A stretch of 64,000 nucleotides of DNA from an uncultured Actinomycetota bacterium (GCA_963735115.1 CAVTJR010000003.1:1352641-1416640); one strand, 5' to 3'. Numbered from the stretch's first letter, positions 8,658 to 24,944 are shown. Program-made: numbers and translations. The notes: generated from the letters alone by a model not told the origin.

Positions 8658-9614
8658 TCAGGCCACGGTGCTCGACCGACCGAGTACCGCCTTCAGATCC
8701 GAGACGACCAGATGCGGTGCTTCGTGAACCGAAGCTGGCGTGGTCCGGAGCAGTATCCATCCGCTCGCCACGATCCGGTTGCCCCGCTCTCGGTCGTTGA
8801 CAAATGTCCGTGAGTCTGAGTGGTAGCGATAGCCGTCGAGCTCGAGCGCTACCCGCCGGTCGGGCCACGCCAGGTCGACGCGGCCCAAGAAACGCCCGCC
8901 GAGGCGGATCGAGTACTGCGTCTCCGGACGCTCGACGCCGGCGGTCACAAGCAGGTCGACCAGCCTGGCTTCCGCCACGCTGTCGACCTCACACAGACGT
9001 TCGACCACTCGCCGAAGACGGGCGAGCCCCTTTATGCCCCGTCCCGTAGATGACACGTACCTCTCGAGGCTGCGAATGCTCAGCAAGTGCTCGGCCACGC
9101 AATAGTCGAGGAACCCCTGTAACTGCTTGTCGTCGAGTGCCTCGCCGGCGATGTCGAGCATTGTGCGCAGGGGTCGCGTGACCTCAACTCCAGCGCGTCT
9201 CGTCGTAAGCCCTTCGAGGGTGCGGCGCGTCAGGTGAACGATCATGCCCGGCCGCCGGCACGGGTGGCATCCGTGTCGTACGGTCACGTGAATCGCCTCG
9301 CCTTCGAAACCCGCCCCGCGGTATCCCCACAGCTGGGCGGCAGTCTGGTGGGAGATGACCCCGCTGGTGTGGGTCGTCGCGACGAGCGCGCGTTCGGCGA
9401 GCCCCACCTCGGAACCGACGAGGCGGTAGACACCGTGGGCCTCTCTAATCAGCGCTCCCTTGGTCACGAGTCGCTGAAGTCGCTTCCGACTGATACCGAG
9501 GGCGGAGGCGGCGGTCGTCGTGACAATGCCTCGTGAACCGCCGGCCGCGTCCGCGAGCAGCTTCAACGGTTGCCGAACCGACTGCGCTTCGTCCACGCCG
9601 GCATCATCCCGCAT
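8658..9614 (-). CDS. AbiEi-like N-terminal HTH plus DUF559 (Vsr-like endonuclease fold) protein
   Basis: The N-terminal part is GIVTTTAASALGISRKRLQRLVTKGALIREAHGVYRL. The C-terminal part is RVDLAWPDRRVALELDGYRYHSD...ERGNRIVASGW. The start is taken at ATG 9614 (MRDDAG...), because the track start at 9653 lies inside repeat B. Confidence 0.8.
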   Translation of the reverse strand: MRDDAGVDEAQSVRQPLKLLADAAGGSRGIVTTTAASALGISRKRLQRLVTKGALIREAHGVYRLVGSEVGLAERALVATTHTSGVISHQTAAQLWGYRGAGFEGEAIHVTVRHGCHPCRRPGMIVHLTRRTLEGLTTRRAGVEVTRPLRTMLDIAGEALDDKQLQGFLDYCVAEHLLSIRSLERYVSSTGRGIKGLARLRRVVERLCEVDSVAEARLVDLLVTAGVERPETQYSIRLGGRFLGRVDLAWPDRRVALELDGYRYHSDSRTFVNDRERGNRIVASGWILLRTTPASVHEAPHLVVSDLKAVLGRSSTVA

Positions 9615-9630
9615 GGCTGTGTCACGCCGC

Positions 9631-9680
9631 TTCTGGGTGGGTGAAAGGGACACATAGCGTCCCTAACTGCGTCCAGAAGG
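9631..9680. repeat. 50-bp structured direct repeat, copy B
   Basis: TTCTGGGTGGGTGAAAGGGAcacatagcgTCCCtaacTGCGTCCAGAAGG. The 20-nt and 13-nt flanks and the stem bases are identical to copy A; the loop bases differ. It begins 16 nt upstream of the DUF559 start. Confidence 0.9.
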
Positions 9681-17744: not shown

Positions 17745-18692
17745 TCAGCGACCTTCGAGCAGCTCCCGCCGCTTGGTTTCGTACTCGGCGTTCGTGATCA
17801 CCCCTAGCCGGAGCAGCTCGTCGAGCCGCGTCAGCTCCTCACTCGACGATGACGGCAGCGAGTCAGCCGGCGCCGGAACCGGCTGGGCGGCTGGAGGCGC
17901 GACCGGAGGCGGGGCGTACTGCTGGGACACCTGCTGCTGCGGGTACTGGGGCGAGGGTTGCTCGGGTAGCGGTGACGGCGTCGGGTAGGTCGGAGGTTGC
18001 GGTTGCACCGGGTGCTGCGCTGGCTCGTACCGGGGTGGTTGGTACTGGGGCGGCTGGTACTGTGCCGGCTGGTACTGGGGTTGCGGGTTCGGCTGGGCGT
18101 ACTGGGGTGGAGGCTGGTTCTGCGCCGGCTGGTACTGGGGTTGCGGGTTGGGCGGGGCGTACTGGGGCTGCTCGTAGGCGCCCTGGGGTGGGTACGCGCC
18201 AGCGCCGTAGCCCGCCGCTGGGGGCGAGATCAGCCGGTTCATCAGCGACTGAACGGCGGCGGGATGCCGTATGTCCGGGAACGGCTCCTCGCCTCCGGCG
18301 CCGGCTGACTGAATCGTCAGGCTGCCGGCACCCACGAGGCGCTCGACGATGCTCTGCGAGTACGTCACGTCTTGCACGCGGTCGAGGGGGATCTCACGAC
18401 CGAGACGGCGCAGGACACCCGTTCGATACACGACCCGCCGGTTCGTGAGCACGAGCGTGGTGGAGCGCCACACGCCGATCTTGCCGAGCACCCAGAGGAA
18501 GAACACACCGGCGATGCCGAGAAGCACCCAGCCCACCCACAGTGGAGCATGTGTCCACTCCACCACGACGGTGACAGAGGCGGCGACGACCAGCAGGAAC
18601 AGCGACACGCGAGGGACGAGGATCGACCAGTTCGGGTGCGCCTCAAGGACGATGTCCTCGCCCGGGGCGAGGAGCTTGCGAGGAAAGGCCAT
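17745..18692 (-). CDS. Membrane bPH_2 (YdbT-like PH) domain protein with a P/Q/Y-rich linker and C-terminal SHOCT-like domain
   Basis: The N-terminal part MAFPRKLLAPGEDIVLEAHPNW has two TM helices, followed by TNRRVVYRTG...IPLDRVQDV. Then comes a long QPQYQP-type low-complexity stretch. The C-terminal end is LTRLDELLRLGVITNAEYETKRRELL. Confidence 0.8.
   Translation of the reverse strand: MAFPRKLLAPGEDIVLEAHPNWSILVPRVSLFLLVVAASVTVVVEWTHAPLWVGWVLLGIAGVFFLWVLGKIGVWRSTTLVLTNRRVVYRTGVLRRLGREIPLDRVQDVTYSQSIVERLVGAGSLTIQSAGAGGEEPFPDIRHPAAVQSLMNRLISPPAAGYGAGAYPPQGAYEQPQYAPPNPQPQYQPAQNQPPPQYAQPNPQPQYQPAQYQPPQYQPPRYEPAQHPVQPQPPTYPTPSPLPEQPSPQYPQQQVSQQYAPPPVAPPAAQPVPAPADSLPSSSSEELTRLDELLRLGVITNAEYETKRRELLEGR
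18061..18167. repeat. Tandem ~60-bp duplication inside the PQ-rich linker coding region
   Basis: tgYgccggctggtactggggttgcgggttSgg..gggcgtactgggg occurs at 18061 and again at 18121. It encodes QPNPQPQYQPAQ-type repeats. Confidence 0.8.
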
Positions 18693-18708
18693 TGGGCTGT
18701 CTCTTCGC

Positions 18709-19917
18709 TCAGCCGAGCTTGCCGGAGATCGCACCGGCGCCCCGCAGCACCGTCCCGTCGGCCCCTGCGACCGAGAAACTCACCGACGGCCTTGCGATCG
18801 CCTCCCCCAGCAGATCGAGCAGCAACCTGGCGAACGGCACGGGCGGGTCGATCCAGAGATAGCGGGCGAGCGAGCCCGGGATCGTGTTCACCTCGTTCAC
18901 GAAGACCGCCTCGCCGTCGGACAGGAAGTCGATGCGGGCGACACCGCGCACGCCGACAAGATGCGCCACCTCGGGCGCGATGGTACGGAGCTCTCGTTCG
19001 AGCTCGGGGCTGATGCGCGCGGGTAGCTCGCGCGGCGCCGTCGTCATCCCCTCCGGCCCGACGTACTTGTCCGAGTAGGCGAGGATCTCGCCGGCTCGCG
19101 TCCGCAACGGCTTCTCGATCGCCGAGAGCTGCACTTCGGGCCAGAGGCGCACTCCGATCTGCAGGTCGAACAGCTCCGGTTGGTACGGCTCGAGGACCGC
19201 CCCGCGTTTCAAGTGCGGGTTCACCCGCAGGCGTGCACGGGCCGTCTCGTAGTCCGCCACGACCTCGACGCCGATCGACGAGCCACCGAAGCGGGGCTTC
19301 ACGATGTAAGGCCCGGGAAAGCTGGGCGGGGGGACGGCCTCGGACAACGGGACCCTGGGAAGCATCTGCATCCAGGCGGAGGCGGCCATGGCGCTGAACA
19401 CGAGCTTGTCCATCCCGATGAGGGCCCCGGCCATGTTTGGGCCCGTGTACGGCAGGCCGATCATGTCGAGCGCCCCCTGCAACGAGCCATCCTCACCGGG
19501 TCCCCCGTGGCAGCAGACCAGCACGGCGTCGACTTCGATGAGCTGCTCCTTCGATCCGAAGCGTCCTCCCCGCTGAGCGAAGAAACCCCCACCCGCCCCC
19601 ACCACCAGCCGCAACGGCCCGGCACCGGCGGGTACGCCCTGAACGAAGGCAGACGCCTCGAGGTTCGTGGGCACCTCGAACCACTCGCCCGTCTTCGACC
19701 AGTAGAAAGAGTGCAGCTCACCGATGTTGGGCACCTGGTTGAAGCCCCGCAACACCTGCAGGCCCGTCAGGATCGAGACGTCGTGCTCCGGGGACGGCCC
19801 GCCGAAGACGACGGCGATCCGAGCGAGCGCCCCTCCGCTGCGAAGCCCGACCGCCCCCGTGATCCCGAGCGCGCCGCGTTCGTCGAAGGTGAGCCGGCGG
19901 CCCCTGTTCAAACCCAT
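18709..19917 (-). CDS. ddl: D-alanine--D-alanine ligase family ATP-grasp enzyme
   Basis: The sequence shows RIAVVFGGPSPEHDVSILTG..., GEDGSLQGALDMIGLPYTG, YIVKPRFGGSSIGV and RIDFL...VFVNEVNTIPGS. The start is either ATG 19917 or GTG 19929. Confidence 0.85.
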   Translation of the reverse strand: MGLNRGRRLTFDERGALGITGAVGLRSGGALARIAVVFGGPSPEHDVSILTGLQVLRGFNQVPNIGELHSFYWSKTGEWFEVPTNLEASAFVQGVPAGAGPLRLVVGAGGGFFAQRGGRFGSKEQLIEVDAVLVCCHGGPGEDGSLQGALDMIGLPYTGPNMAGALIGMDKLVFSAMAASAWMQMLPRVPLSEAVPPPSFPGPYIVKPRFGGSSIGVEVVADYETARARLRVNPHLKRGAVLEPYQPELFDLQIGVRLWPEVQLSAIEKPLRTRAGEILAYSDKYVGPEGMTTAPRELPARISPELERELRTIAPEVAHLVGVRGVARIDFLSDGEAVFVNEVNTIPGSLARYLWIDPPVPFARLLLDLLGEAIARPSVSFSVAGADGTVLRGAGAISGKLG

Positions 19918-20018
19918 TGCGGCGCTCACTCTAGCGGCAGCTAGCAGGTTGTAAGGGGATCGAAAGGGCGTCTCGGGGGGTTTCGGACGGACGACGAGAT
20001 GCGGGCTGACGAGGGCGA

Positions 20019-21572
20019 TCAGGGGAAGTGATCGGGCAGATCGTTCTCGTAAAGGACGGCGTCTCCAGGGCCGAGATTCTGGCGGGCCCAGGCGACCGCT
20101 TCGTCGAGTCGATCGACAAGAAGCACCGAGGCGCCATCGGCTCGGCGGCGTGCCCCTTCGGACAGCGCCCGGCGGTTCGTGCGTGCCACGACGACAAGGT
20201 CGGAGACGACAGCGGCGGCGGCCTCGGCCAGGGCGGCATTCTCGTAGGCCTGCTGCCTGCCGAGCTCCACCATGCCGGGCGTCACGAGCACTCGGCGGCC
20301 CCGCGGTGCCTCGAGCTGCAAGCGGGCAAGAGCGAGGCGGGCGCCCGCCGGATTCGAGTTGAAGGTGTCATCGAGCACGACATAGCCGGCCTCGGCGACG
20401 TAGCGCTGCAGCCGGTTGGCCGGCACGGGCAGGGTGGCCAGCCTCGGCAACAGCGTCTCCGCCTCGACACCCAGCTCCAGAGCGACGCCGGCGGCGCAGG
20501 CGGCGTTCGAAAGGGCCGTAGGCCGGTCCGCCACCGCTGTCATGGCCGTCCCGAGGCGCCGCCCGCCAACGCGAAGCTCGATGCCGTCCGGCACCGCCAG
20601 CACGGCGACGTCGGCTTCCGAGCTGCAGCCGGAGGCGCCCACGACGTGCTTGCCGGCGCTCACGAGCTGCTTGGCCAGGCCGGCGAGCCGTTCGTCGTCG
20701 ATGTTGAGCACGACAACGCGTGCCCTCTCGGTGATCTCCGCCTTCGCCTTCAGCGTGCGATCGAGGCTCTTGAAGCGCTCGAGGTGAGCAGGACCGATCG
20801 CCGTGATGACGGCGATCTCCGGCGGCATCCAGGTGCAGAGCTCGGCGATCTCACCTGGCCCGTAGGCGCCCATCTCGGCCACGAGCACCTCCGTGGCCGG
20901 TCCGAGGTGCTCATTGATGGTACGCGACAAGCCGGCGCGGTTGTTGTAGCTCTGCGGGCTGGCCAGCGTGTCCTTGGCGGCGCTCACGAGATGGGCGATG
21001 TAGCCCTTCGTGGTCGTCTTGCCGTACGAACCGGTGACGGCGACGACGACCGGGTGCACCCGCTCCAGCCGAGCGGTTGCCTGACGAACGTAGGACGTGG
21101 CGAGGCGGGTTTCGATCGGGCGCGTGACGGCGAGACACAGGTCGAGCGCGACTGGCGCCAGCAGGCACAGGCATGCGGCCGCAACGACCGCTCCGTGCAG
21201 GCCGGCGATGGCGGCGCCGAGGGCGACGGCCAACCCCTCGAGGAGGCCCACGGCCAACGCGAGCGCCGTGAGCCGACGCGTCCAGACGAGCCTCGACGTC
21301 CGCCCGCGGACGCCAAGGCGCCGGGGTGCGGCGATGGCCACGGCGGCGGGGAGGACGGCGGCCGGTGCGACGAAGGCCGAAGCGACGATGCCGAGGACGC
21401 CGGCGAGCGAGAGGATGGCGTCAACCGGCGTGCTCTGCCACCAGCGGAGGGCGAAACGTGTGGCGGACCCCGCCAAGTAGTGCTCCCGCTGGGCCACCCG
21501 CAGCCACTTCAGCGAGCCGACGATGGTGCCCGCCAGGGCGACCGCCAGGCTGACGCTGGTGATCGCCGTCAC
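20019..21572 (-). CDS. Mur ligase family protein, MurF-like, with an N-terminal multi-TM domain
   Basis: The first ~150 aa are hydrophobic helices. They are followed by VAVTGSYGKTTTKGYIAHL (P-loop), SPQSYNNRAGLSRT, VITAIGPAHLERF and DDTFNSNPAGARLAL (MurF-like). The GTG start overlaps the upstream hydrolase stop (GTGA). Confidence 0.85.
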   Translation of the reverse strand: MTAITSVSLAVALAGTIVGSLKWLRVAQREHYLAGSATRFALRWWQSTPVDAILSLAGVLGIVASAFVAPAAVLPAAVAIAAPRRLGVRGRTSRLVWTRRLTALALAVGLLEGLAVALGAAIAGLHGAVVAAACLCLLAPVALDLCLAVTRPIETRLATSYVRQATARLERVHPVVVAVTGSYGKTTTKGYIAHLVSAAKDTLASPQSYNNRAGLSRTINEHLGPATEVLVAEMGAYGPGEIAELCTWMPPEIAVITAIGPAHLERFKSLDRTLKAKAEITERARVVVLNIDDERLAGLAKQLVSAGKHVVGASGCSSEADVAVLAVPDGIELRVGGRRLGTAMTAVADRPTALSNAACAAGVALELGVEAETLLPRLATLPVPANRLQRYVAEAGYVVLDDTFNSNPAGARLALARLQLEAPRGRRVLVTPGMVELGRQQAYENAALAEAAAAVVSDLVVVARTNRRALSEGARRRADGASVLLVDRLDEAVAWARQNLGPGDAVLYENDLPDHFP

Positions 21573-22354
21573 GGAAGCAGGCGTTCGATGGCAGCCCGTA
21601 GCTCACCGGGCACGCTCATCGGCGTCATGTGTCCGGCACCTTCGCACACGACGAGATGGGCACCGCCCGGAATGGCGGCTTGGATCTTGTGGGCGACCGC
21701 GAGCGGCACAGCCGTGTCGTCGTCACCCCACACGAGCTCGACGGGACATGCGATCTGCGAGAGCGCCTCGGTGTAGTCCTCCTGCACGAGGGTCACGAAG
21801 ACGTCCCGCATCACACCGCTGGCCGCTTTGTAGTCGGCCGAGCCGTACCGCTGGCGATGCTGCTCGAGGCGCCCTTCCGAGACGAGGCCGACACCTGCCA
21901 ATCTTTTGACGACCCTGAAGCGGAGGGGCGAACGGCGGGCAGCCGCCGAGCGGAACAGCGGGACTCCCGTGAGCACGAGGCCGCCGATGCGCTCCGGGGC
22001 GATGGCTGCCAGGTGGACACCCACCCGCCCGCCGAACGAATGGCCGATCACGACCACCCGGGCCTGCATCTCCTCGAGCAGCGGCAAGAGCGCCTCTGCG
22101 TAGCGGGGTGACCCCCACACCTCCGCCGGAGGTGGCGTTCCCCCGAAGCCGGGCAGGTCGAGGGCGATAGCGTCGAGCGCCGGCTCGGGTTCGGTGAGCG
22201 TGGCGACGAAGTCCTGATGGTCTCGACGCCAGCCGTGCAGCGCTAGCACAACGGGGGTACCGGCCCCGTAGGACTCACCAAACAGCTGTGCGCCGGCAAA
22301 GGAGGTCAGCACCGCTTGGAACATACCTGAGGCGAGGCCTCGCCCCGGTGACAC
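21569..22354 (-). CDS. Alpha/beta hydrolase
   Basis: The sequence shows VVLALHGW..., VVVIGHSFGGRVG (nucleophile elbow) and ...CEGAGHMTP. The start may instead be ATG 22324. Confidence 0.85.
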   Translation of the reverse strand: MSPGRGLASGMFQAVLTSFAGAQLFGESYGAGTPVVLALHGWRRDHQDFVATLTEPEPALDAIALDLPGFGGTPPPAEVWGSPRYAEALLPLLEEMQARVVVIGHSFGGRVGVHLAAIAPERIGGLVLTGVPLFRSAAARRSPLRFRVVKRLAGVGLVSEGRLEQHRQRYGSADYKAASGVMRDVFVTLVQEDYTEALSQIACPVELVWGDDDTAVPLAVAHKIQAAIPGGAHLVVCEGAGHMTPMSVPGELRAAIERLLP

Positions 22355-22376: not shown

Positions 22377-24240
22377 GTGGCCGACGATCGGAGCACTCGC
22401 GACTGGACGCGCCCGGCGGGCGACCTCCTCGCCGGATGCGACCCCGAGCAGATCGAGGCGATCACCACCACGGCGACGCCGCTGTGCGTGCTGGCGGGAG
22501 CCGGCTCGGGCAAGACGCGGGTGCTCACCCGACGGATCGCCTGGCGGGTGACGAACGGCTCTGCCACCGCCGCTCATGTCCTCGCCCTCACCTTCACCCG
22601 CAAGGCAGCCACCGAGCTGCGATCGCGGCTGGCGACACTCGGGCTTCCGGAGGCCGTCACGGCCGGGACGTTCCACTCCGTCGCGCTCTCCGAGCTGAAG
22701 CGCCTCGCCGCCGAGCAGGGGCGGCGTCCGCCGGTCGTGCTCAGCTCCAAGGTGCGCATGTTGATGAACGTGCTCGACGACGCCGGCATGCCTGCCCGCA
22801 TATCACCCAAGCGGCGAGCGGCCGGGAGCGCGCCGGCTCGGGGCGCTCAGAGGTCCGTGGCGGATTCTCGCCTCCGAGATCGAATGGGCGAAGTCGCGCT
22901 GCCTGCGTCCCGACGAGCTCGTGCGGGCGTCCGCCTTTGCCGGTCGACGGGGCACCTGGGACCCCACGGAGGTGGCAGAGGTGTGGGAGCGCTATGAGCT
23001 CCACAAGCACCGCCGCGGCGTGCTCGATTTCGAGGACCTGCTCGATCGCTGCACCCAGCAGCTGCTGAGCGATCACGAGTTCGCCGCGTCCGCTCGCTGG
23101 CGCTTCCGGCACCTGTTCGTCGACGAGTATCAGGACGTCAACGACGCTCAACAACGCCTCCTGCGCGCCTGGCTCGGCTCCAACGACGATCTCTGCGTCG
23201 TGGGCGATCCACATCAGGCGATCTACTCGTGGAACGGGTCGAACCCGCGCGCCATCACCGATTTCGGCGAGGACTACCCGGCGGCCTCGATCCTGCGGCT
23301 GTCGATCAACTACCGCTCCACACACGAGGTGCTGACGGTTGCCGGCGCCGTCCTCGGGCAGACACGGGCGGCGCAGGCGGGAGGGGTGCGCCCCGAGGGG
23401 CCGATCCCGACGGTCGTTTCCTATGCCGACGAGAGGGCGGAAGCAGCCGGGGTGGCCGAGGTTGCCCGGCGCGCCAAGCGACCCGGGCGGTCCTGGTCGC
23501 AGATCGCCGTGTTGGCGCGCACGAACGCCCAACTGGGCGCCTTCGAGGAGGCGTTCTCCTCTCGCGGTGTTCCCTGCCATGTCGTCAGTGCGGCCGGTCT
23601 GCTCGGAAAGCCGTGGGTGCAGGAAGCGGTGAGAGCGGCCGCTCATACGCCGGACACGGCTGCGCTCGCCGCCTGGACCGCCGACCTCGCCTCGAGCGTG
23701 AGGGCAGGGCACGACGACGAGCAATCGGACGAGGAGGAGGCCGTTCAAGACGACGCTCGGCTCGATCTGTCGGCGTTGGTCCGCCTCGCCGGCGAGTACT
23801 TGGCGGAGGATGTCTTTGCGAACGGGGCGGGTTTCAGGAATTGGCTCGAGGCCGCCCACGGGCGCGAGCAGGATCCCGTGCGCCGCGATGCCGTCGAGCT
23901 CACGACATTCCACCGCGCCAAAGGACTCGAATGGGCCATCGTCTTCGTCACCGGCCTCGAGGACGGTTATGTCCCCATCGCCCACGCCCGTGATCCTGAC
24001 GCCCTCGCCGAAGAGCGCAGGCTGCTGTACGTCGCCTGCACACGCGCTGAGGAGGAGCTGCATTGCTCGTGGGCGGCCGAGCGCTCCTTCGCCTCGAGCG
24101 GGCCGATCCCGCGTGTTCCCTCGCCCTGGCTCTGCGCAATCGAAGCCGCTCACCGGGATCTGCAGCGTTTGCGCAGAGCTGCCCCAGAGGCGGCCCGACG
24201 GGCCCTGGCCGACAGCCGGCGCGCCCTCGAGGGAGCGTGA
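22377..24240 (+). pseudogene. UvrD/PcrA-family helicase, frame-disrupted
   Basis: Frame 0 (22377-~22800) reads LCVLAGAGSGKTRVLTRRIAW...LTFTRKAA...AGTFHS. Frame +1 (open from ~22765, recognisable helicase sequence from ~22860) reads ILASEIEWAKSRCLRPDEL...HLFVDEYQDVN...VVGDPHQAIYSWNG...INYRST...TFHRAKGLEW...LLYVACTRAEEEL. A one-nucleotide shift is needed between ~22790 and 22865. Confidence 0.75.
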
Positions 24241-24455: not shown

Positions 24456-24944
24456 ATGGCGAATGCTGACACGAGAGCGGCAGACCTTGAGGCGCGCAAC
24501 CAGTACCTGGGAATCATCGACGACGCCTGGGAGATCTACCGGGAAGCCGTCGAGCGGGCCTGGGATGCATTCGAGACCGCCCTCGATCCCGCCCGAGTCG
24601 CCTACGAGCAGATGCAGTCGACGGCCGAGAGCACGCACGGCCAGCAGATCGACGAAGCATGGGCGTTGTACAAGCAGGCCGTCGCCAACGCCCCATCGAC
24701 CATGCGCCGTGACATCGTGGCCCAGGCGAGAGCGACCTACAACGAGACGGCGGCGCAGGTTCGCAAGACCTACAACGAGAACATGGCGATCGCCAGGGAC
24801 GACTACCTACGCAACGTGAACGACGCCCGCAACACCTACCGGGCGGCCGTCGATGGTGAGCTGGACGCCCACCGCGAGGCCGTGCGGGGTGCTTGGGGCA
24901 ACTACCTCGAGATGGTCGATTCGCACCTCATGGTCGACGACTGA
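24456..24944 (+). CDS. Hypothetical helical-repeat protein
   Basis: The 162-aa ORF is preceded by GGGAGGAGG. It has internally repetitive A/Y/W-containing helical segments (DDAWEIYREAVERAW, DEAWALYKQAV, ARATYNETAAQVRKTYNENMA, ARNTYRAAV). I recognise no family. Confidence 0.55.
   Translation: MANADTRAADLEARNQYLGIIDDAWEIYREAVERAWDAFETALDPARVAYEQMQSTAESTHGQQIDEAWALYKQAVANAPSTMRRDIVAQARATYNETAAQVRKTYNENMAIARDDYLRNVNDARNTYRAAVDGELDAHREAVRGAWGNYLEMVDSHLMVDD

Follow-up and report, generated by a model that had tools for sequence, protein, structure and literature searches.

The 64,000-nucleotide stretch of DNA analysed here (the window), from an uncultured Actinomycetota bacterium (GCA_963735115.1 CAVTJR010000003.1:1352641-1416640), carries four adjacent minus-strand genes for an alpha/beta hydrolase, a Mur ligase with a membrane N-terminus, a homologue of the D-Ala:D-Ala ligase Ddl and a bPH_2 membrane protein. 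We think it likely that, in the lineage of this Acidimicrobiales bacterium, these genes provide the part of peptidoglycan precursor synthesis that adds D-Ala-D-Ala, in a membrane-integrated form not described before. An initial annotation of this DNA had kept a housekeeping murF/ddl pair of unusual form as its fallback explanation. It is this explanation that is now favoured by the occurrence of the form throughout the Acidimicrobiia, by the complete active site of the Ddl homologue and by the cell-wall contexts of related loci.

In the pathway we propose, Ddl would make D-Ala-D-Ala, and the MurF core would use ATP to activate the stem-peptide carboxylate as an acyl-phosphate and join the dipeptide to the N-acetylmuramic acid (MurNAc)-tripeptide stem. 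The membrane domain would hold this ligation at the inner face of the membrane, presumably beside MraY. We infer this chemistry, the membrane topology and an essential role for the proteins; the domain identities, conserved residues, linkage and genomic contexts are shown below.

Organization of the locus

All four open reading frames (ORFs) that the initial annotation had described at 17745-22354 are present where it placed them. The ORF ends are those of the window and the probable starts come from independent gene callers; lengths are in amino acids (aa).

21569-22354, minus strand: alpha/beta hydrolase; ORF of 261 aa, probable start at 22324 giving 251 aa
21569-21572, minus strand: GTGA overlap of the hydrolase stop TGA with the ligase start GTG, read from the sequence
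20019-21572, minus strand: whole Mur ligase with a membrane N-terminus; 517 aa, with Mur_ligase_M and Mur_ligase_C as its only Pfam domains
21099-21572, minus strand: N-terminal membrane domain of the ligase, residues 1 to about 158, as judged by hydropathy, alignment and AlphaFold
20019-21098, minus strand: MurF-type ligase core, residues about 159 to 517, as judged by Pfam, NCBIfam, PDB sequence and fold searches
18709-19929, minus strand: D-Ala:D-Ala ligase homologue with Dala_Dala_lig_N and Dala_Dala_lig_C; probable start of the ORF at 19917 giving 402 aa
17745-18734, minus strand: bPH_2 membrane protein with a PQ-rich linker and a SHOCT-like end; probable start of the ORF at 18692 giving 315 aa

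Direct reading of the sequence confirmed the GTGA overlap reported between the hydrolase and ligase genes, and this stop/start arrangement suggests that the two are translationally coupled. The overlap is likewise 4 nt in the related loci L084, L132, L133, L134 and L136, and 7 nt in L135. The gap between the ligase gene and ddl, put earlier at about 90-100 nt, measures 101 nt when the called ddl start is used, and the 16-nt gap claimed between ddl and the bPH_2 gene is reproduced with the called bPH_2 start. A scan of the operon for promoters and terminators gave no signal above background.

The ligase has a MurF-type core

The two Pfam domains of the ligase are matched with E values of 8.7e-28 (Mur_ligase_M, PF08245) and 3.6e-11 (Mur_ligase_C, PF02875), and the translation contains the three MurF-like motifs quoted in the initial annotation, VTGSYGKTTTK, SYNNRAGLSRT and DDTFNSNPAGA. 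The P-loop TGSYGKTTTK is invariant or nearly so in the family, and a C-terminal motif, LYENDLPDHFP, is specific to the membrane ligases. The top NCBIfam match is the murF model TIGR01143, aligned over profile positions 60-402 with 189.9 bits (family cutoff, 288.6 bits). MurF proteins are also the best matches in a sequence search of the PDB, and a fold search placed the MurF structures 4qf5, 4cvm and 3zl8 first, over about 370 columns, with MurE, MurC, MurD and MurT lower. The MurT model NF052464 gave 18.4 bits against a cutoff of 800, and no PgsB/CapB family is among the 19 NCBIfam matches. On these comparisons, the ligase is nearer to MurF than to MurC, MurD, MurE, MurT or Mpl.

The ligases of four other loci, L132, L134, L135 and L136, reach 213-249 bits on TIGR01143, still under the cutoff and with the first 60 or so profile positions unmatched; over profile positions 63-403 alone, family members of other lineages score up to 248 bits. 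Since the trio proteins of other lineages score higher, the family can be seen to pass gradually into ordinary MurF and Ddl, with the window ligase and Ddl among its more diverged members. In NCBI, proteins of this kind appear under different names, 'Mur ligase family protein' or MurF, because they fall below the curated MurF and Ddl thresholds.

A conserved predicted membrane domain at the ligase N-terminus

Residues 1-178 of the ligase have no Pfam match, PF01225 included, and the N-terminus is strongly hydrophobic by hydropathy. AlphaFold2 models the whole ligase with a mean predicted local distance difference test (pLDDT) score of 95.4 and a predicted template modelling score (pTM) of 0.91, and the N-terminal domain folded alone with a pLDDT of 95.3. 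The earlier claim that hydrophobic helices take the place of the soluble MurF N-domain is borne out, with six helices predicted (residues 2-29, 36-47, 49-65, 69-81, 99-137 and 139-172; pLDDT about 95) rather than four or five. The last of these runs continuously from the membrane domain into the ligase core with pLDDT >90. A mis-called start had been raised as a possible explanation of the hydrophobic segment; the N-terminus proved to be genuine, as it is in frame, belongs to a 517-aa protein in other assemblies and can be aligned from residue 1. The full-length alignment holds down to genomes of 33% GC.

Conservation within the domain was followed in N-terminal alignments of more than 150 representatives at 50% identity and of 100 selected family members. 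Its motifs are RVAQREHY, W44, P83, WTRR (T98, R100), D144 and PxE (E154). R25, Q28, R29, E30, H31 and Y32 of RVAQREHY, together with W44, P83, T98, R100 and E154, are invariant in the 100 sequences, while D144 is invariant in the N-domain alignment and nearly so in the 100-sequence alignment; the conserved columns recur in wider family samples. Applied to the sequence, the positive-inside rule predicts a cytoplasmic location for the Arg-rich loops 22-48 and 82-100 and for the stretch beyond residue 150. The conserved polar residues would then lie where membrane and cytosol meet, close to the catalytic core.

No model in Pfam or NCBIfam corresponds to this domain, and a Foldseek search of the PDB returned nothing significant (best E, 1.5). 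The likeness to a Wzx/MurJ-type flippase fold in that search (E 1.5-9) is too weak to count as evidence. Homology to the N-domain of E. coli MurF was rejected (hhalign probability 0.5%), and a likeness of TR[RK]L to the TDTRKL motif found no support. Residues 1-60 of E. coli MurF have no counterpart in the ligase. Judged by these alignments and models, the UDP-binding N-domain of canonical MurF is absent, and a conserved polytopic membrane domain of about 155 residues stands in its place. With the canonical domain gone, either UDP would be bound by a new surface or the acceptor would already be lipid-linked. The idea of a membrane-associated acceptor, put forward in the initial annotation, is kept alive by this replacement.

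The Ddl homologue retains the D-Ala:D-Ala ligase active site

The product of the third gene matches Dala_Dala_lig_N and Dala_Dala_lig_C. It scores 165.8 bits on the Ddl model TIGR01205 (cutoff, 245.65 bits), and the trio-linked Ddls of L132, L134, L135 and L136 pass curated Ddl cutoffs with 260-288 bits. Among 64 orthologues, the equivalents of E. coli DdlB E15, H63, K97, K144, S150, K215, Y216, R255, E270 are kept in every sequence and those of D257, N272 and G276 in 63. The window protein itself retains the E15-S150-Y216 triad; the DdlB residues changed in it are S281 (to Tyr) and K181 (to Pro). VanA-, VanC- and VanG-type models gave 59-104 bits against cutoffs of 495-775. By alignment, therefore, this ATP-grasp enzyme carries the full set of catalytic residues of a D-Ala:D-Ala ligase.

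Conservation and distribution of the trio

A scan of GTDB species genomes with the RVAQREHY motif matched at least 599 stretches, 581 of which were confirmed as relatives. Linkage was counted in the best 80 loci of this set, with the loci that have sufficient flank as denominators; nearly all of the 80 come from metagenome-assembled genomes (MAGs) of Acidimicrobiia, including Ca. Microthrix and the marine MedAcidi. Of 76 loci, 74 have the hydrolase gene immediately upstream of the ligase gene; of 74 loci, 69 have ddl immediately downstream of it, to which two loci with a frameshifted ligase gene are added. This adjacency is far beyond chance. The bPH_2 gene follows ddl directly in 36 of 66 loci and is found anywhere at the locus in 43; it is absent from the Actinomarina-like, Dehalococcoidia and Rhodothalassiaceae trio loci and from L134, L135 and L136. 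On these counts, the core is the trio of hydrolase, ligase and Ddl, and the bPH_2/SHOCT gene is optional. The co-occurrence of all four genes, which the initial annotation had asked about, thus holds for the three that travel together and fails for the fourth. Beyond the trio, bPH_2 and uvrD there are no further conserved neighbours, no other family occurring in more than about a quarter of the loci.

The named close homologues of the ligase found in a homologue search belong to Acidimicrobiia/Acidimicrobiales only. The trio is also retained in low-GC contigs of the Ca. Actinomarina type. Ca. Actinomarina genomes are very small, and the retention of the trio there argues against a dispensable extra copy. 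Outside the class, a Dehalococcoidia (Chloroflexota) MAG carries the trio with the same stop/start overlap of hydrolase and ligase, and a Rhodothalassiaceae (Alphaproteobacteria) MAG carries it with that overlap in the order ddl-hydrolase-ligase. The trio is thus inherited as a unit across the Acidimicrobiia and is present in at least two other phyla. Its GC content equals that of the flanks in L132, L133 and L134, so no signal of horizontal transfer is seen there. The window, with about 68% GC, has almost the same sequence as contig JBKQIU010000039.1 of assembly GCA_052148235.1; its trio is vertically conserved, lies in a core-genome neighbourhood and has the base composition of the host.

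Two variants of the arrangement were seen. At L027 (1793-4905) and L041 (8287-11593), the ligase is translationally coupled to a PF04185 phosphoesterase (phospholipase C/acid phosphatase family) instead of the hydrolase, and this subgroup may be a functionally diverged branch. In the representative library, a 532-aa fragment (P0230) consists of the C-terminal part of the hydrolase followed, in the same frame, by the membrane ligase, as either a true fusion or the result of a one-base error at the overlapping stop and start.

The matches listed by the homologue and representative searches are all of the membrane form. Neither these searches nor the scans baited with RVAQREHY and MurD listed an Acidimicrobiia division and cell-wall (dcw) cluster or a canonical MurF from this class. 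The metagenome scan baited with the MurD of L024 brought up murL-murD loci and two dcw clusters, Nocardioides-like and Firmicutes-like, neither of them from Acidimicrobiia. A homologue search with the MraY of L097 led to Nocardioides. In 83 loci of about 20 kb each, there is no second Mur ligase or Ddl except a murD in L024 and a Ddl in L032. The membrane form is the normal form of MurF across the Acidimicrobiia, and the MurF of the trio is probably the main or only one in the class.

Cell-wall gene contexts of related trios

The position of the genes 'outside any dcw context', emphasized in the initial annotation, is correct for the window, where no dcw gene is found in 64 kb, and does not extend to the family, as a homologous trio sits inside a dcw cluster. 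This is the case on a JGI contig (L136), which reads mraY-ftsW-murG-murC-murB-ddl-hydrolase-membrane MurF-ftsQ with overlapping genes, so that the Ddl of the trio fills the ddl slot of the cluster. At 1-1603 of this contig, ftsW follows mraY directly, without murD; the contig ends within mraY and the murE side lies outside it. This missing murD and the relocation of the membrane MurF to a place after ddl indicate a remodelled dcw cluster. In L135, a class A penicillin-binding protein (PBP) gene, the hydrolase, the membrane MurF and Ddl form one overlapping operon, adjoined by mreB, mreC and a PBP2-type gene. The trio of L134 is flanked by dapB and thyX-dapA, and an Amidase_2 gene adjoins that of L132.

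In an Acidimicrobiales MAG (L024, 11639-18323), the trio is followed by genes for a VanX-like M15 dipeptidase, an alanine racemase, pgeF, murD and a murL-like epimerase. The MurD passes the TIGR01087 cutoff; the MurL-like protein is distant from UDP-MurNAc-L-Ala-L-Glu epimerase, with 316 bits against a cutoff of 700. Pairs of murL and murD occur in at least 30 metagenome loci, and the L024 cluster hints at a MurD2/MurL route to D-Glu outside the Xanthomonadales. In L032 (8145-9841), a homologue of the M15 D-Ala-D-Ala dipeptidase and, on the opposite strand, a second Ddl of the short type lie beside the trio.

A murF gene away from its usual place is not exceptional. The Firmicutes-like dcw contig (L126), Nocardioides dongkuii and its relatives have murE followed by mraY without an intervening murF, and the existence of such clusters makes an off-cluster murF ordinary. 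In N. dongkuii (L128; CP059903.1, 1491545-1504636) the order is mraZ-rsmH-ftsL-pbp-murE-mraY-murD-ftsW-murG-murC-ftsQ, with no murF between murE and mraY, and the dcw clusters of L127 and L097 likewise lack murF at this point.

The hydrolase, the bPH_2 protein and the window neighbourhood

The hydrolase matches Abhydrolase_6 (PF12697; 7e-18, 66.5 bits) and Abhydrolase_1 (PF00561; 5e-16, 59.6 bits), both above cutoff, and has a GHSFGG nucleophile elbow and a Ser106/Asp213/His242 triad (ORF numbering). The triad and a set of polar lid residues, R147, E164, R167, D174, Y175, R183 and E192, are at least 93% conserved in 56 orthologues. Comparison with the PDB returned only generic esterases, and the cutoff of no specific NCBIfam subfamily was reached. 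The hydrolase certainly belongs to the conserved unit. It had been suggested earlier to be an editing or release activity; its tight linkage to the ligase is real, and the suggested role is unsupported guesswork. As a guess of our own, it may trim tetrapeptide precursors to the tripeptide that MurF can use, or edit or proofread stem-peptide precursors.

The fourth protein matches bPH_2 (PF03703; 3.3e-18, 66.1 bits), and its SHOCT-like end scores 23.9 bits on PF09851, for which the gathering score is 27 bits. Its linker of about 130 residues is of low complexity, rich in Pro, Gln and Tyr, with repeated PQPQYQPAQ units. The gene is a frequent but dispensable neighbour, outside the conserved core.

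In the window, the genes are flanked on one side by recA, cinA, miaB, galK and genes for a CoA-transferase and a GH1 enzyme. On the other side are uvrD, sulfur amino-acid genes and genes for an Rrf2 regulator and a cyclopropane-fatty-acid synthase. The UvrD-family helicase gene (22377-24240, plus strand) is broken up into overlapping ORFs, 22377-22997 and 22921-24240. In JBKQIU010000039.1, which differs here by one indel, it encodes a single 620-aa protein, so the break reflects an error of assembly or else a frameshift of recent origin. Between recA and cinA there is an AbiEi_4 antitoxin-like gene with a REase_MTES_1575-like domain (8658-9653, minus strand), which the related loci examined do not have at that place. 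A 162-aa protein encoded between uvrD and the Rrf2 regulator (24456-24944, plus strand) gives a borderline AbpA-like match (27.1 bits); the relatives L001-L003 have a gene of the same size there, without a Pfam match.

Main pathway or additional system

Several observations weigh against a housekeeping role for the trio. The window ligase and its Ddl both fall below the curated family thresholds, and with the UDP-binding domain of canonical MurF missing, the usual substrate cannot be bound as it is by canonical MurF. The hydrolase, linked in nearly all loci, has no role in the textbook pathway. Some membrane ligases are without a Ddl (L027, L041 and the orphan L137). The short-type Ddl of L032, 2 kb from the trio, is above the NF002378 cutoff, which means two Ddl paralogues within 3 kb in that genome; this is not strong evidence, because E. 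coli likewise has two Ddl enzymes, DdlA and DdlB. Alphaproteobacteria normally keep murF and ddl in the dcw cluster, so the Rhodothalassiaceae trio may be an extra copy. In Acidimicrobiia genomes, a canonical murF and a second ddl may lie outside the loci compared here.

These points could be accommodated if the trio were a second, specialised system beside a canonical murF/ddl pair, ligating a D-Ala-containing dipeptide onto a different carboxylate in the membrane, such as a free carboxyl group of lipid II or of some other envelope lipid, with the hydrolase preparing or editing that acceptor. This would fit the exchange of the UDP-binding domain for a membrane domain with invariant Gln, Arg, Glu, His, Tyr and Thr residues, a hydrolase partner that is obligate across three phyla, the sub-threshold scores of both window enzymes, the canonical second Ddl adjoining the trio in L032, the trio in an alphaproteobacterial MAG and the ligases paired with a phosphoesterase without a Ddl. 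That a Mur-type ligase can act on lipid II is known from MurT. We nevertheless regard a specialised system as rather unlikely, since the trio Ddl occupies the ddl slot of the dcw cluster in L136 and passes canonical cutoffs in four lineages, the trio is kept in the low-GC contigs of the Actinomarina type, whose genomes are very small, the 83 loci hold no other Mur ligase or Ddl save those in L024 and L032, and no candidate pathway for an alternative acceptor is co-conserved. A related possibility, which we consider unlikely, is that the membrane domain binds undecaprenyl-pyrophosphoryl-MurNAc-tripeptide. MraY would then act first, D-Ala-D-Ala would be added to the lipid-linked intermediate, and the hydrolase would be a partner that the ligase cannot do without, for instance because it trims or proofreads the stems on the lipid.

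It is quite improbable that the trio is a van-type module for alternative precursors or resistance, in which the ligase would make a non-standard dipeptide or depsipeptide, the MurF2-like enzyme would install it and the hydrolase would remove normal precursors. The combination of a ligase, a hydrolase and a MurF-like gene does resemble the logic of a van cluster, vanHAX clusters of Actinobacteria are accompanied by MurF-like genes (PMC8698665), L024 and L032 have M15 dipeptidases resembling VanX close to the trio, and DdlB Ser281 is changed to Tyr. However, no VanH, VanT, VanR or VanS is near the trio, the window holds no van partner genes, none of the D-Ala:D-Ala residues checked, Tyr216 among them, has been lost, and the VanA-, VanC- and VanG-type scores are far under their cutoffs. 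The same survey found no van-like genes in Acidimicrobiales or Actinomarinales (PMC8698665), and the vertical conservation, core-genome neighbourhood and host base composition of the trio do not fit such a module. High-GC DNA yields many long spurious ORFs, which might have made the adjacency incidental or the N-terminus an annotation artefact joining a soluble MurF to an unrelated small membrane ORF. This has practically no chance of being correct and is refuted by the single frame without an internal stop, by the full-length alignment of more than 100 proteins from genomes of down to 33% GC, by helix 139-172, which spans from the membrane domain into the core with pLDDT >90, and by the linkage of the ligase to the hydrolase (74/76) and to Ddl (69, plus two, of 74). 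A membrane-integrated housekeeping MurF/Ddl branch thus remains the reading that we prefer.

Comparison with known systems

With vanHAX clusters that include murF2, the trio shares a Ddl-family ligase, a precursor hydrolase and a dedicated MurF-like ligase (PMC8698665). It differs in having no dehydrogenase, racemase or two-component regulator, in keeping Tyr216, in its hydrolase, which is of the alpha/beta type and not M15, and in being core and vertical. CapB/PgsB are likewise Mur-ligase-like proteins that have an N-terminal membrane anchor and act at the membrane; however, PgsB has a single anchor helix, works with PgsC/PgsA partners and polymerises glutamate, and no conserved PgsC/PgsA-like neighbour is found here. 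MurT/GatD resembles the present system in its Mur-ligase fold, its membrane-bound substrate (lipid II) and its hydrolase-type partner. MurT is nevertheless soluble, with a DUF1727 C-terminal domain and a glutaminase partner; its structures rank under MurF, MurE, MurC and MurD in our fold search, and there is no GatD-like neighbour at the window locus or among the conserved neighbours.

Canonical MurF together with Ddl, as in the ddl-murF operons of Firmicutes, is the nearest known system. These operons also have Ddl and MurF together and away from murE-mraY. B. subtilis has such a separate ddl-murF operon outside its dcw cluster, with the bPH_2 genes ydbS and ydbT nearby; a literature search for a link between ydbS/ydbT and murF found nothing. 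Unlike the trio, these operons encode a soluble three-domain MurF in the order ddl then murF, and have no hydrolase.

In textbooks MurF is a soluble enzyme; it is also a target for antibiotics, and the UDP end of its substrate is taken to be held by the N-terminal domain. In the literature that could be searched, we found no description of a membrane-bound or atypical MurF, or of the peptidoglycan genes of Acidimicrobiia/Actinomarinales. Canonical MurF (EC 6.3.2.10; TIGR01143; 1GG4, 4CVK/4CVM, 4QF5, 3ZL8) shares with the ligase described here the P-loop ATP-binding centre, the C-terminal domain and the linkage to ddl. In place of its soluble N-domain, the present ligase has a membrane domain of about 155 residues, together with a sub-cutoff score, the LYENDLPDHFP motif and an obligate hydrolase partner. 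A whole class of bacteria, abundant in soils, fresh water and the ocean, appears to use a MurF with an integral membrane N-domain, locked to a hydrolase. At the least, the final cytoplasmic step of precursor synthesis can be hard-wired to the membrane next to MraY, and such a membrane-fixed MurF bears on the long-discussed complex of Mur enzymes that would channel precursors. If the acceptor were indeed lipid-linked, the lipid I/II pathway would be reordered in Acidimicrobiia and in at least some Dehalococcoidia and Alphaproteobacteria, a departure from the textbook. Compared with the canonical enzyme, we thus see a widespread remodelling of an essential, drug-targeted protein rather than a free-standing novel pathway.

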